This document shows positions 1-3,540 of a stretch of DNA of 3,540 nt, in pieces; within the stretch, counting starts at the first letter, position 1; the number at the start of each line of letters is the position of its first letter. The DNA lies in NCBI RefSeq assembly GCF_003334255.1, contig NZ_QOWU01000119.1. One strand, written 5' to 3'. The DNA is from Escherichia coli (GTDB lineage: Bacteria > Pseudomonadota > Gammaproteobacteria > Enterobacterales > Enterobacteriaceae). The position numbers and the translations under genes are program-made. Under the pieces are notes generated by a model, which saw only the letters and a list, made by a program, of their open reading frames with translations, did no database searches and was not told the origin of the DNA.

Positions 1-243
1 CATAAACCGGTGCAGTACTATCCCGGGAAACATCCGTGCGAAAAACCGGCAGAAATGCTGCAGCAGATAATCAGCGCGAGCAGTCGTCCGGGTGACCTGG
101 TTGCAGATTTCTTCATGGGGTCAGGTTCGACAGTCAAAGCAGCGATAGCGCTGGGACGTCGTGCAACTGGCGTTGAGCTGGAGACTGAGCGTTTTGAGCA
201 GACGGTCAGGGAAGTTCAGAATTTAGTCAGTCAGAACGGATGA
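1..243 (+). CDS. DNA methyltransferase, C-terminal part (N6_N4_Mtase-type, probably N6-adenine or N4-cytosine); 5'-truncated by the window edge
   Basis: Frame +1 is open from base 1 (HKPVQYYPGKHPCEKP...), so the GTG at 10 in the track is internal. The stop is TGA at 241-243. The sequence has an HPxxKP-type motif (HPCEKP) followed by SAM-binding motif I FxGSGST (DFFMGSGST). A C-terminal motif I is typical of beta-class amino-methyltransferases. Confidence 0.85.
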   Translation, partial: HKPVQYYPGKHPCEKPAEMLQQIISASSRPGDLVADFFMGSGSTVKAAIALGRRATGVELETERFEQTVREVQNLVSQNG

Positions 244-368: not shown

Positions 369-445
369 CCGCCATTAGCTCATCGGGATAGAGCGCCAGC
401 CTTCGAAGCTGGCTGCGCGGGGTTCGAGTCCTCGATGGCGGTCCA
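369..445 (+). tRNA. argN: tRNA-Arg (anticodon UCG; reads CGA/CGG)
   Basis: A 77-nt cloverleaf. Acceptor stem is CCGCCAT/ATGGCGG. D stem is GCTC/GAGC with a GGGATA D-loop (Arg-type A20 context). Anticodon stem is CCAGC/GCTGG with loop CTTCGAA (TCG). T stem is CGGGG/CCTCG with one G-T pair and loop TTCGAGT. Discriminator T and CCA are encoded. It lies 9 nt after the first tRNA. The gene symbol is by analogy with the phage ileZ-argN-argO cluster and is less certain than the tRNA call. Confidence 0.85.
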
Positions 446-501
446 TTATCTGCATTATGCGTTGTTGGTTCTGATGAGTGAATCATTGTCTTTTGAGCAA
501 C

Positions 502-523
502 AGGCTATCATATAAGATAGCCT
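502..523. other. Perfect 8-bp stem hairpin (AGGCTATC-ATATAA-GATAGCCT) downstream of the tRNA pair; function unknown
   Basis: The inverted repeat is read directly from the sequence. No adjacent T-tract follows on either strand (the next bases on + are CAGACTTCCTTGTTTATT), so it is not a canonical intrinsic terminator. It could be a processing site or a protein-binding palindrome. Confidence 0.3.
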
Positions 524-711
524 CAGACTTCCTTGTTTATTCTCGCCGGATGCTTCGTAGATATTTGCAGGCATCTGTATGCAGGGGTATTATTGCGGCA
601 TATATCATCCGGAAAAATAAAAACTACATGCTGATCCGGAGATGATAGTTACAAGTCCTCCCGGATCCCGCATATTTACTATATTTTATAGATAATTGTT
701 CTTGTTAATAT

Positions 712-715
712 GGAG
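712..715 (+). promoter_or_regulatory. Shine-Dalgarno (GGAG) for the lipoprotein ORF
   Basis: GGAG lies 8 nt upstream of the ATG at 724. Confidence 0.6.
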
Positions 716-723
716 ATGGATAA

Positions 724-1152
724 ATGTATTGCCGTGCTGTACCAGTTCTTGTTTTGATATTAGCCAGTCTGACAACTGGCTGCACAAAAGATGTATCGAC
801 AAATAATTATGATGCTTCTCTGTATCACTCAGATAAATTAATAAAGTCGCAAAATTTGAGCTCATCGGAACGTACCCCTGATGCCAGTGAAGAAATCAGG
901 CAGTATGCCATTCAGGTCAGGAAAGCCATAGAAGAACAGTTAAAGGATGCGAGTAAGTATTCAGGAAAAGAGTGTTCACTGAGAATGTATATGGCCCCGA
1001 ATGGTCTTCTGCTACAGGTTAAAAGAGAAAGCGGTGATCCCGATTTATGTCGTGAAGCGATGAATGCAGTAAAGAATGCTGATATACCATCACCACCGTC
1101 TTCAGGAGTATATAAAGCATTTAGAAATGGCGTGCTGGATTTTAAACTCTGA
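724..1152 (+). CDS. Prophage-encoded lipoprotein with a TolA C-terminal (domain III)-like domain; lacks TolA domains I and II
   Basis: A complete 142-codon ORF with a Shine-Dalgarno. The N-terminus MYCRAVPVLVLILASLTTG|C has a basic n-region, a hydrophobic core and a lipobox ending at Cys20, with Thr at +2. Residues 56-142 align without gaps to my recollection of the last 87 residues of E. coli TolA. Shared blocks include YA.Q...AIE....DAS.Y.GK.C.LR...AP.G.LL..K.E.GDP.LC..A..A.K.A.IP.PPS..VY..F.N..LDFK. By hand count about 45 of 87 positions are identical, including both cysteines and the C-terminal LDFK ending. The region is visibly AT-rich and uses rare codons. Confidence 0.85.
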   Translation: MYCRAVPVLVLILASLTTGCTKDVSTNNYDASLYHSDKLIKSQNLSSSERTPDASEEIRQYAIQVRKAIEEQLKDASKYSGKECSLRMYMAPNGLLLQVKRESGDPDLCREAMNAVKNADIPSPPSSGVYKAFRNGVLDFKL

Positions 1153-1188
1153 CAGGGGGAGAAGATTTTCTCCTGTCCTGATGATTTT
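1153..1188 (+). terminator. Probable intrinsic terminator directly after the lipoprotein stop codon
   Basis: An interrupted stem is formed by CAGG (1153-1156)/CCTG (1177-1180) plus GGAGAA (1158-1163)/TTCTCC (1168-1173) with loop GATT. TTTT at 1185-1188 follows 4 nt after the stem. The T-tract is short and displaced. Confidence 0.45.
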
Positions 1189-1328
1189 GGGGCGCTGGAA
1201 AGATATTGTGCTGTGAAGTGTTAAATTCCTCACAATTCAGTAAGTTGACAGTTGCCTGTCAGACTGGGCATTTGTTAAAAAAATTTCGCATGGTGAATCC
1301 CCCTGAGCGGAGGGGCGACTGGTGACGG

Positions 1329-1689: not shown

Positions 1690-3540
1690 ATGACATTTAA
1701 ACACTACGATGTGGTCAGGGCGGCGTCGCCGTCAGACCTTGCGGAGCGACTGACACAAAAACTGAAGGAGGGGTGGCAGCCATTTGGCAGCCCTGTGGCC
1801 ATCACGCCTTATACCCTGATGCAGGCCATTGCGGCGGAAGGTGATGTCACCACACCGGTGGTGGTGCAACCGTCGGGTGATGGTGGCGCTGTTATCAGCA
1901 CCACCAGCGAACCGGAATATTACTTTGTCATTGCGCTGGCCGGGCAGTCCAACTCGATGTCTTTTGGCGAGGGGCTGCCGCTGCCGGAGACATATGACCG
2001 TCCGGACCCGCGTATTAAACAGCTGGCGCGTCGCAGTACGGTGACGCCGGGTGGTGCCGCCTGTAAATATAACGACATCATTCCGGCAGACCACTGTCTG
2101 CATGATGTGCAGGATATGAGTAACCTGAATCATCCTCATGCAGACCTGAGTAAGGGACAGTACGGTTGTGTGGGGCATGCTCTGCATGTTGCCAAAAAGC
2201 TGCTGCCGTTTATGCCTGCGAATGCGGGTATCCTTCTTGTTCCATGTGGCCGTGGCGATTCGGGATTTACTGCGGGGGCCGAGGGGGCGTTTAACGAAGC
2301 GTCGGGAGCGACCGCAGGCTCGTCCCTGTGGGGGGCGGATAAACCGCTGTATCATGACCTGGTCAGCAGAACCCGTGCGGCCCTGAAGAAAAATCCGAAG
2401 AACGTGCTGTTATCAGTGATCTGGATGCAGGGAGAAAAAGATGTCAGTTCGGGGAGACATGCAGAACACAATGCGCTTTTCCTTGCCATGGTAAATCAGT
2501 TCCGTACGGAACTGGCAGATGTGGCAGAGCAGTGTACTGGCGGGACAACGGCCAGCGTCCCGTGGATTTGCGGTGATACCACGTACTACTGGAAGGAAAG
2601 GTATGCAGCGCCGTATGAGGCGGTTTACGGTGGGTATAAAGGCAAAGCTGCGCAGAATATTCACTTTGTGCCGTTGATGACGGATGAGCATGGTGTGAAT
2701 GTGCCGACAAACGAGCCGTCAGAAGATCCGGACATTATCCCGGCGGGATACTATGGCGCTGCGTCACGCACTGCCAGTAACTGGACGTCAGCCGATCGTA
2801 AAACGCACTTCAGTTCATGGGCGCGAAGAGGCCTTGTTTCAGACCGCCTGGCAGGTGCCATTTTGCAGTACGCCGGGCGGACATTATCGTTCCTTACCGG
2901 GCAGAGCGCACCGCAGTCGGGTGGTACAACTCCCGGTGATGATGTCAGTCCGGGGGTACCGGGTGTTGAGAAACCGCAGGATGGCGGTGTTGCTGGTACT
3001 GGTCATGATGAGGCCGTGAGCAGTACCAGGACGGTGGCTGAATATGATGCGAACAGTGGAAATGGTGTATGGACAGAGCAGCAGTGGGGGGCTGCCGGTG
3101 GCAAAGGCACTGTGACTGATGACGGTGGACGGAAAGCGCTACGACTGGAAAAACAGCCCGGTAAACTGACGTCCTGGAAAATGTTCCGTACTGTTGCAGT
3201 GGAGGAGGCAAAAAATCTTCTCAGCAAGGGGGGTGAAATTGCCGTACGGTTCAAAATTCCGGATGGAAGCGAACTGGTGAACGGACAGTTTGTCTTTGGT
3301 CTCTACTGGCCGGTGTCGCAGTGGGCGTCAGGCGCGGCAGCAAACAGTATGCTGGCATCATTCTTCCTTCAGACGGATGCATCAAATCTGAATCTTATGC
3401 ACCACAAGGGCACGTCGAATGCACAACTGGGTACATTTGGTGCGTTTGACCATAACTGGCATACGGTTGTTTTCCGCTTTGCGGGAAATAACAGCGAAAG
3501 AGTCGTTCCGGTGATTGATGGTACAGAGCAGACGGCGTTT
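1690..3540 (+). CDS. nanS-p: Prophage sialate (9-O-acetyl-neuraminate) O-acetylesterase, NanS-p type: DUF1737 N-domain, SASA/SGNH esterase domain, Gly/Pro-rich linker, lectin/LamG-like C-domain; 3'-truncated by the window edge
   Basis: I translated frame +1 from ATG 1690 by hand and found 617 sense codons with no stop through 3540. That is why the ORF track does not list it. The N-terminus MTFKHYDVVRAASPSDLAE.LTQKLKEGWQPFG matches my recollection of the DUF1737 start of Stx-phage ORF L0105/NanS-p. The esterase block-I motif AGQSNS (Ser codon at 1948-1950) and IWMQGEKD (the WxQGE motif of the SASA family) are present. The strong Shine-Dalgarno and the homogeneous GC-rich coding signal also support it. 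Confidence 0.9.
   Translation, partial: MTFKHYDVVRAASPSDLAERLTQKLKEGWQPFGSPVAITPYTLMQAIAAEGDVTTPVVVQPSGDGGAVISTTSEPEYYFVIALAGQSNSMSFGEGLPLPETYDRPDPRIKQLARRSTVTPGGAACKYNDIIPADHCLHDVQDMSNLNHPHADLSKGQYGCVGHALHVAKKLLPFMPANAGILLVPCGRGDSGFTAGAEGAFNEASGATAGSSLWGADKPLYHDLVSRTRAALKKNPKNVLLSVIWMQGEKDVSSGRHAEHNALFLAMVNQFRTELADVAEQCTGGTTASVPWICGDTTYYWKERYAAPYEAVYGGYKGKAAQNIHFVPLMTDEHGVNVPTNEPSEDPDIIPAGYYGAASRTASNWTSADRKTHFSSWARRGLVSDRLAGAILQYAGRTLSFLTGQSAPQSGGTTPGDDVSPGVPGVEKPQDGGVAGTGHDEAVSSTRTVAEYDANSGNGVWTEQQWGAAGGKGTVTDDGGRKALRLEKQPGKLTSWKMFRTVAVEEAKNLLSKGGEIAVRFKIPDGSELVNGQFVFGLYWPVSQWASGAAANSMLASFFLQTDASNLNLMHHKGTSNAQLGTFGAFDHNWHTVVFRFAGNNSERVVPVIDGTEQTAF

Follow-up and report, generated by a model that had tools for sequence, protein, structure and literature searches.

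The 3,540-nt stretch of Escherichia coli DNA analysed here (from contig NZ_QOWU01000119.1 of assembly GCF_003334255.1; referred to below as the window) originates from a lambdoid prophage and contains a gene whose 142 aa product combines a signal peptide with a lipobox, a linker of about 35 residues, and a C-terminal domain that matches the whole of domain III of the host protein TolA (TolA-III). Results of our analysis lead us to propose, with a probability of roughly 0.45, that this protein is an un-energised decoy, tethered to the outer membrane, which intercepts Tol-dependent colicins and filamentous phages. In the list of open reading frames (ORFs), the start codon of the gene is the earliest one past a stop in its frame. 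The features of the gene are as follows.

724..1152, plus strand: lipobox-TolA-III gene, 142 aa, stop codon 1150-1152 (ORF list; the same coding sequence is annotated in RefSeq as WP_000271631.1)
712..715, plus strand: Shine-Dalgarno-like GGAG, 8 nt upstream of the ATG at 724 (direct reading of the sequence)
724..783, plus strand: signal peptide with lipobox, Cys20 codon 781-783, Thr at +2 (PROSITE-style lipobox regular expression)
784..888, plus strand: Ser/Asp/Asn-rich tether, residues 21-55 (composition and the model confidence score, pLDDT)
889..1149, plus strand: TolA domain III, residues 56-142 (Pfam and PDB matches, residue mapping, model superposition)
within 889..1149, plus strand: strand beta3, corresponding to the site for TolB, g3p, and colicin N (ColN), residues 136-142, GVLDFKL (residue mapping)
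within 889..1149, plus strand: strand of the colicin A site, residues 96-101, LLQVKR (residue mapping)

A Pfam search assigned residues 52-140 of the protein to the family PF06519 (TolA_C) with 81.4 bits and E=5.7e-23, over positions 7-96 of the 96 positions of the model; the gathering threshold of this family is 25 bits. In the phmmer comparison with PDB, residues 54-141 were aligned without gaps to the TolA-III chains of 1S62, 3QDP, and 1TOL (E ~1e-25), and BLASTP placed residues 57-141 on residues 336-420 of K-12 TolA with 52.9% identity and 0 gaps. In the residue mapping to E. coli TolA, 45 of the 86 positions are identical. An earlier note on this DNA, made from its letters alone, had described a gapless alignment to the C-terminus of TolA that starts at residue 56 and in which about half of the positions are identical. 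The lack of gaps and the degree of identity are borne out by the searches, but the exact starting point is not, as the alignable region begins at residues 54-57. The cysteines and the terminal LDFK motif that had been singled out as shared with TolA do correspond to it: C84 and C109, both invariant in the family, are by alignment the disulfide cysteines C363 and C388 of TolA, and L138-D139-F140-K141 are its L417-D418-F419-K420.

The structure of residues 50-142 was modelled by AlphaFold2 with a 93-sequence alignment (pLDDT 92.3). The modelled fold is the alpha/beta fold of TolA-III with a three-stranded sheet, and it superposes on the E. coli TolA-III structures 2X9A (chain B) and 1TOL with a TM score of 0.90-0.91 and a root-mean-square deviation (rmsd) of 0.8 Å over 87 columns. 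The profile search and the superposition on TolA-III crystal structures are the checks of the domain assignment that the earlier note had named, and both speak for it. This model replaced a poor first one, which was built by AlphaFold2 from an alignment of 11 sequences of E. coli only and had a pLDDT of 59.5 and a TM score of 0.3-0.5 to TolA-III.

The protein is a member of PF06519 but it is not TolA. The full-length TolA models of NCBIfam match it only with their last ~90-95 positions, from position 266 or 297 onward, which indicates that TolA domains I and II are absent, as had been read from the sequence. The N-terminal transmembrane helix (domain I), by which TolA is coupled to TolQ and TolR, is replaced by a cleavable-type lipobox signal, and the long Ala/Lys-rich helical domain II is replaced by the 35-residue Ser/Asp/Asn-rich linker. 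The gene is located outside the ybgC-tolQRA-tolB-pal operon, in a lambdoid prophage, between the genes of the Q antiterminator and of holin. The name given to these 142-aa proteins by the NCBI annotation pipeline (PGAP), 'cell envelope integrity protein TolA', is probably a consequence of the fact that the C-terminal domain alone clears the cutoff of TIGR02794 (75.9 bits vs. 59.45), while the score for NF007065 is 103 bits vs. a cutoff of 213. It is a systematic misannotation, which is misleading and should be changed.

The N-terminus of the protein, MYCRAVPVLVLILASLTTG/C20-T21 (LTTG/C20; the slash precedes the lipobox cysteine), fits a PROSITE PS51257-style lipobox pattern, applied as a regular expression. 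Thr at position -3 of this lipobox is unusual, the classical residue being Leu. Despite the strong divergence of signal peptides in the family (MYCRAVPVLVLILASLTTGC vs. MGFRSASILTLIISGIIIGC; dN is 0.60 in the signal peptide between the gene of the window and that of the second clade of the family, described below), G19-C20-T21 is invariant in 11 family members. The signal peptide and the lipobox with Thr at +2, as first reported for this ORF, agree with both observations. An exhaustive search without a profile, over 1.84 billion representatives, yielded 303 matches; a lipobox is present in 46 of the 70 short relatives (105-170 aa) vs. 4 of the 63 long ones. To judge from these sequences, the lipoprotein architecture is a trait of the family and is not limited to phages. 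According to the Asp+2 rule, Asp at position +2 of Enterobacterales lipoproteins means retention. None of the 46 relatives with a lipobox has Asp at this position, and on this ground, as well as on that of its own Thr at +2, the lipoprotein of the window is predicted to be sorted to the outer membrane. Among the database copies, one has Asn at the lipobox position -2 (LTNGC), and several (P0001, P0021, P0022, P0037, P0038, and others) are frameshifted or truncated, which suggests that some copies are decaying.

The linker (residues 21-55) contains 8 Ser, 4 Asp, and 3 Asn residues among 35, in keeping with the Ser/Asn/Asp-rich spacer noticed previously. It is predicted to be disordered; in the first AlphaFold model, with its shallow alignment, pLDDT of residues 1-51 is below 50.

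The conservation of surface residues is uneven between the ligand-binding sites of TolA-III. In E. coli TolA, residues D418 and K420 of strand beta3 form backbone hydrogen bonds to the N1 domain of g3p (g3p-N1), and the substitutions D418P and K420P abolish the binding of ColN, g3p-N1, and TolB (PMC4339652). The residues of this strand (L417, D418, F419, and K420 in the host) are identical in the prophage protein and invariant in 11 family members, and the TolB/g3p/ColN site thus looks intact at the level of sequence. Colicin A docks on the opposite face of TolA, at L375-P380 plus K368, K379, and K396 (PMC3365938). Of the residues at this site, L375, L376, K379, and K396 are the same in the prophage protein, while K368 is changed to Y/H, D377 to Q/E, and P380 to R. 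The residue mapping indicates that the faces of helix 1 and of the colicin A site diverge from those of host TolA. The dissociation constants (KD) reported for TolA are 1 µM with ColN and 40 µM with TolB (PMC4339652), and 1.34 µM with ColA(53-107) (PMC3365938).

The gene is real and under purifying selection. In the comparison of the window gene with the clade-2 gene, dN/dS is 0.35 overall; by segment, it is lowest in the domain (0.30), followed by the linker (0.34) and the signal peptide (0.44). Synonymous divergence from the TolA-III region of host K-12 tolA is saturated (dS ~2.3), and therefore the gene is not a recent tolA fragment. These results bear on the explanation by which the ORF would be a non-functional relic, namely, a fragment of host tolA acquired via aberrant recombination and mis-called as a gene. 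The PGAP label and the truncated or frameshifted database copies fit such a relic, but the dN/dS values of 0.30-0.35 between clades, the saturated synonymous divergence, a purpose-built signal peptide with a lipobox that is not found in tolA, and the architecture and synteny kept across elements of E. coli, Salmonella, and Klebsiella do not. The idea of a relic or pseudogene was rejected based on dN/dS and the conserved architecture; for practical purposes it is refuted, and we leave it next to no probability. A neighbour-joining tree of 139 domain sequences neither supported nor excluded a single clade of mobile-element lipoproteins apart from true TolAs; in this tree, the domain of the window is approximately equidistant from the Salmonella prophage copy, other lipoproteins, and K-12 TolA.

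In the decoy reading that we favour, Cys20 would anchor a small lipoprotein in the inner leaflet of the outer membrane, and the flexible tether of ~35 residues would hold a folded, disulfide-bonded TolA domain III in the periplasm. As the TolQR-coupled transmembrane helix and the helical domain II are absent, the proton motive force could not energise such a lipoprotein, and for this reason it would compete with the cell's own TolA for domain III ligands. The candidate ligands, bound via the conserved beta3 (LDFK), would be the translocation domain of colicin N, the N1 domains of g3p/pIII, and the N-terminus of TolB. At the site where invaders come out of the outer membrane, the decoy might trap them in a dead-end complex, and since the affinities are ~1 µM for invaders vs. 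~40 µM for TolB, this might happen at levels that disturb Tol-Pal only mildly. The carrier of the prophage or plasmid would thereby become tolerant to bacteriocins that depend on Tol and to filamentous phages specific for pili. Colicin tolerance caused by periplasmic TolAIII was reportedly observed by Levengood-Freyermuth et al. in 1993. With pIII-N1 in the periplasm, cells are resistant to colicin A and their uptake of fd is lower by 4 logs (PMC10424213), and periplasmic TolAIII perturbs the envelope and serves as a means of making periplasmic proteins leak from E. coli (PMC6195910).

The family to which the gene belongs is present in 895 of 5426 complete E. coli genomes (16.5%), which does not agree with the picture of a rarity given previously. 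The clade of the window is represented in ~123 genomes and the second clade in 772, with ~81% nucleotide identity between the clades. A search of IMG/VR with the single protein of the window identified 125 viral contigs with relatives. Synteny was examined in 80 viral contigs, and gene order was counted where flanking genes are present. The order, on one strand, is Q, an optional methylase gene, the TolA-III gene, an optional esterase gene, and the genes of holin, lysozyme, and Rz, and the Q upstream of the TolA-III gene is one of four unrelated types. In a Salmonella prophage, a 41%-identical lipoprotein (LSMTG/C) is also encoded between Q and holin. E. coli G1/2 holds a stretch identical to that of the window, within a prophage integrated beside ompW, where the order is Q antiterminator, methyltransferase, tRNA-Ile, tRNA-Arg, 'tolA' (WP_000271631.1), esterase, holin, lysozyme, and Rz. 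The annotation of this prophage and the viral contigs confirm what had been said of the gene as prophage-borne and located downstream of the late antiterminator Q. The sole deposited phage genome with a family member is that of mEp460_ev081, and the corresponding PHROGs family, phrog_5772, is labelled 'unknown function'. No family among the defence-protein models of PADLOC-DB matched at E<=0.01. In the clade-2 phages, the TolA-III gene is always followed by a gene of a second TolA-III lipoprotein of 124-131 aa (...FWVGFVAG/CTPLHPS...), which is 25-28% identical; a tblastn search found no remnant of this second paralogue downstream in the window. The C-terminal strand of the second paralogue (L003 9533-9907; L002 6580-6975) reads FDMRG vs. 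LDFKP.

The surroundings of the gene in the window comprise the following features.

1..243, plus strand: 3' end of the gene of the phage DNA methyltransferase, encoded after the Q antiterminator (ORF and annotation of the identical prophage)
284-359 and 369-445, plus strand: two phage tRNA genes (ARAGORN, RefSeq)
467..1229, no strand assigned: low-GC cargo cassette of 763 bp, in the slot of tRNA-Arg, stx2A, and stx2B (blastn vs. Stx2a phage)
1151..1177, plus strand: 12-bp hairpin over the stop codon, perhaps acting as a weak terminator (RNA folding energy -21.5 kcal/mol, z-score -1.85)
1690..3540, plus strand: 5' part of the gene of a SASA-family (NanS-p-like) carbohydrate esterase, which precedes the holin, lysozyme, and Rz genes (sequence and annotation)

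Comparison by blastn indicates that the regions 1-466 (95.5%) and 1230-2736 (79%) of the window flank stx2AB in the Stx2a phage Stx2_95. The cassette 467-1229 is thus an allelic replacement of the third tRNA gene (tRNA-Arg) together with stx2A and stx2B of the Stx2a phage (L089 767-2211). Its GC content is 0.38-0.41 vs. 0.50-0.55 in the flanks. Two features of a phage moron (an autonomous cargo cassette) are therefore present, namely, a distinct base composition and exchangeability with other cargo at the same site. The region of the window from position 1380 onward is also kept in non-Stx phages, e.g., PhiR5_1. The non-coding stretch that separates the TolA-III ORF from the esterase gene is ~540 bp long, and in its part upstream of the esterase gene (1380-1600) there are several hairpins rich in GC or sites resembling terminators (1438-1457; 1475-1496 on the minus strand; 1565-1580). 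The first of the two tRNAs has the anticodon CAT and is tRNA-Ile in RefSeq but Met according to ARAGORN; presumably, it is an ileX/ileZ-like tRNA that reads AUA. The second is tRNA-Arg (TCG). In the TolA-III ORF, ATA accounts for 4 of the 6 Ile codons and AGA/AGG for 5 of the 8 Arg codons, and there is no ATA among 617 codons of the esterase gene.

Several points weigh against the function of the protein as a protective decoy, and some of them concern expression. The late-operon position of the gene, between Q and holin, is found in all viral loci with flanks and in the Salmonella prophage, and from this position strong expression is predicted only after induction. A consensus scan for a promoter of the gene's own gave one 9/12 match, 130 nt upstream, which is at chance level, and no conserved promoter was found in the alignment of upstream regions between clades. 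Downstream of the gene there is a possible weak terminator; the hairpin at 1151-1177 has no proper U-tract, the only U-run being that at 1185-1188, and it was not called in the terminator scan. As regards ligands, protection against colicin A is doubtful because of the substitutions of three colicin A contact residues, and TolB may also be expected to bind the decoy, at a fitness cost. Finally, some short TolA-III lipoproteins are encoded by ordinary chromosomal genes, and for this reason a housekeeping role of this architecture is possible.

The points on expression are among those that speak for the main rival explanation, unlikely in our view, in which the protein would be made only from the Q-antiterminated late transcript and would sabotage Tol-Pal to aid lysis or the release of vesicles or virions. 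The tethered domain would capture the N-terminus of TolB, native TolA could not pull TolB off Pal, and the link between the outer membrane and peptidoglycan would be loosened. This explanation is consistent with the Q-to-holin position on the same strand in all flanked loci among the 80 viral contigs, with four Q types, as well as in the Salmonella prophage, with the lack of a convincing own promoter in the consensus scan and the upstream alignment, and with the invariance of the TolB-binding strand. The gene also occupies the exact slot of stx2AB, the expression of which depends on the late promoter. Moreover, periplasmic TolAIII makes E. coli leaky (PMC6195910). On the other hand, these phages already encode holin, endolysin, and Rz, and TolB has a weak affinity for TolA-III (40 µM; PMC4339652). 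Homologous lipoproteins are also widespread on plasmids of Klebsiella and Enterobacter and occur in at least one chromosomal non-phage context, without lysis genes.

One of these homologues, of 144 aa (WP_001567367.1; LLITA/C, 34% identical), is present in 729 of 72,556 PLSDB records (~1%), of which 657 are from Klebsiella. In the two plasmids inspected (L086 6406-7435; L088 10406-11435; Klebsiella IncF), no lysis module is located nearby, and the TolA-III gene is directly downstream of one that encodes a secreted protein with a thioredoxin fold (WP_001567366.1, PF13098). In the case of a distant relative, P0060, a thioredoxin-fold gene is also located nearby. The gene of the 135-aa TolA-III lipoprotein P0049 (L092 6001-6408; L093 1312-1719) is surrounded by conserved chromosomal genes, none of them from a phage or plasmid, namely, those of a CLC channel, an OpuA-type ABC transporter, and nitrate reductase; thus, the TolA-III lipoprotein architecture is not exclusive to mobile elements. 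Another relative, P0043 (323 aa), has a signal peptide without a lipobox and two TolA-III-like stretches, split by an Ala/Lys-rich segment.

A second line of comparison concerns the C-terminal domain of TonB (TonB-C). The same prophage encodes, after Rz (L001 27072-27398), a 108-aa lipobox protein, MKRNLPLIILLSSLVMG/CTQHK..., with this domain (PF03544, E=1e-14). The gene of the TonB-C lipoprotein is also present in phage 21, in Stx1a phages, and in CP-933N-like prophages, as well as in 415 of 5426 complete E. coli genomes; the label of its PHROGs family, 'Rz-like spanin', looks doubtful. On the side of TonB, this protein may correspond to the TolA-III lipoprotein. In P0052 (L090 1856-2563) and P0104 (L091 6001-6630), TonB_C is followed by TolA_C in a single lipoprotein. 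The gene of P0052, like that of the window, follows an N6/N4 methyltransferase gene. The gene of P0104 is part of the nin region of a lambdoid prophage, where replication genes lie on one side of it and NinG/Q on the other, and it is not adjacent to lysis genes. Import of group A and group B colicins, as well as of several phages, proceeds via two periplasmic heads, TolA-III and TonB-C (PMC7391070), and the fusion and co-carriage of TonB-C argue that the common function concerns the TolA and TonB import routes.

The explanation by a lysis aid and that by a decoy describe the same molecular act, which differs in purpose, and of these two roles, both put forward in the earlier note, the evidence favours the protective decoy. 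The homologues on Klebsiella IncF plasmids have no lysis module nearby, other homologues are paired or fused with lipobox-TonB-C domains, one fusion is encoded in the early nin region and not beside lysis genes, and the affinities favour invaders (~1 µM) over TolB (40 µM) (PMC4339652, PMC3365938). It is also not obvious how a TonB-C partner or fusion would help to weaken the outer membrane, which counts against the lysis aid. We tentatively extend the proposal, with somewhat less assurance than for the protein of the window itself, to an unrecognised class of genes for defence or competition on mobile elements of Enterobacterales, which would encode outer-membrane-anchored, un-energised TolA-III/TonB-C import-hub decoys, copied from both energy transducers of the envelope. 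The heads of these decoys would be single, tandem, or fused, their carrier would be tolerant to Tol- and TonB-dependent bacteriocins and phages, and the gene of the window would represent the TolA arm of the class, in the Shiga-toxin slot of a lambdoid prophage.

The occurrence of TolA-III lipoproteins beyond phages bears also on a further explanation, in our opinion rather improbable, by which the protein would not be a competitive decoy but an envelope accessory protein with a partner outside the known TolA-III ligands, e.g., a tether between the outer membrane and peptidoglycan or Tol-Pal, or a modulator, which would improve the robustness of the envelope of the carrier cell. It would account for the short TolA-III lipoproteins that are conserved chromosomal genes outside mobile elements, for the thioredoxin-fold gene consistently found beside the plasmid copies, a pairing suggestive of an envelope-folding module, and for the helix-1 and colicin-A faces unlike those of host TolA. 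However, the only strictly host-like surface is the beta3 strand for TolB, g3p, and ColN, no alternative ligand is known, and the pairing or fusion with TonB-C points to the two hubs of bacteriocin and phage import and not to envelope structure.

In the case of self-exclusion of the kind mediated by Cor and Llp, the protein would block re-infection by the carrier phage and its close relatives, or the loss of progeny on debris. This explanation would fit a phage-encoded lipoprotein that is probably located in the outer membrane, like Cor and Llp (10.64898/2026.03.26.714494). The same gene is, however, found with at least four Q types, on mosaic backbones, and on plasmids, and so it is not tied to the receptor of one phage, and its domain copies a periplasmic hub of the host and not a receptor plug. 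We know of no lambdoid siphophage that needs TolA for entry, and we consider self-exclusion very improbable.

If the protein is indeed a decoy, about one-sixth of sequenced E. coli strains would be inherently tolerant to a major group of bacteriocins as well as to filamentous phages specific for pili, and ~1% of catalogued plasmids, mostly of Klebsiella, would also confer such tolerance. This would be of importance for therapeutics based on colicins or klebicins, for competition in the gut, and for the use of phage display and M13 tools in wild strains. It would also represent a new principle of defence by mobile elements, in which an import hub of the host is copied as bait, and the TonB-C lipoproteins, even that of the classical phage 21, would be a sister case. 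If, instead, the protein aids lysis, it would act as a naturally occurring Tol-Pal inhibitor and would be the fourth player in the lysis of Gram-negative bacteria by phages, as well as a ready-made probe of the TolA-TolB force-transduction step.

Our search of the full-text literature found no characterisation of this TolA-III lipoprotein family, in line with the statement of the earlier note that no characterised example was known to it; matches to 'TolA' together with prophage were genome tables or concerned chromosomal tolA or Liberibacter. In the literature searched, a natural lipid-anchored decoy of a hub domain on mobile elements, with a TonB counterpart, is not described. What is already known is that the gene is common and annotated, and that the principle of competition is established. 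As a whole, the interpretation proposed in the earlier note is partly supported by our results.

Among known systems, E. coli TolA-III itself (1TOL, 2X9A, 3QDP/3QDR, 1S62) shares with the protein of the window the Pfam domain, the fold (0.8 Å), 53% gapless identity, the disulfide cysteines, and LDFK. The protein of the window differs from E. coli TolA in that it has no domains I and II, is encoded outside the tolQRAB-pal operon, carries a lipoprotein signal, and has substitutions at the colicin A contacts K368, D377, and P380; while TolA hangs from the inner membrane, the protein of the window would hang from the outer one. In the periplasm of Ff-infected cells, g3p/pIII-N1 competes at the same interface of TolA-III and its ligands, with colicin A resistance and exclusion of filamentous phages as a result (PMC10424213). 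It is a mirror image of the proposed decoy: in the case of g3p-N1, an overproduced ligand masks the hub, whereas the protein of the window would be a copy of the hub that soaks up ligands. Cor and Llp plug a specific receptor, FhuA, and are not known to be related to the protein of the window in sequence or fold; the likeness is one of functional analogy. Cor (phi80/N15/mEp167) and Llp (T5) are small phage-encoded lipoproteins of the outer membrane that block import from the periplasmic side (10.64898/2026.03.26.714494), while the protein of the window copies the head of a host energy transducer and is not tied to the receptor of its carrier phage. The stx2AB cassette has the same slot, after Q, methylase, and tRNA genes and before those of NanS-p esterase and holin, with shared flanks, but its cargo is entirely different, and this likeness is positional and bears only on the probable regulation. 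By analogy, the protein of the window would work most like the recombinant periplasmic TolAIII of laboratory studies (Levengood-Freyermuth 1993; Wan & Baneyx 1998), which is likewise a free, un-energised TolA-III in the periplasm. The latter is a soluble, overexpressed laboratory construct of host sequence, while the protein of the window is natural, diverged, kept by selection, encoded by a mobile element, and, as its N-terminus suggests, lipid-anchored and tethered.

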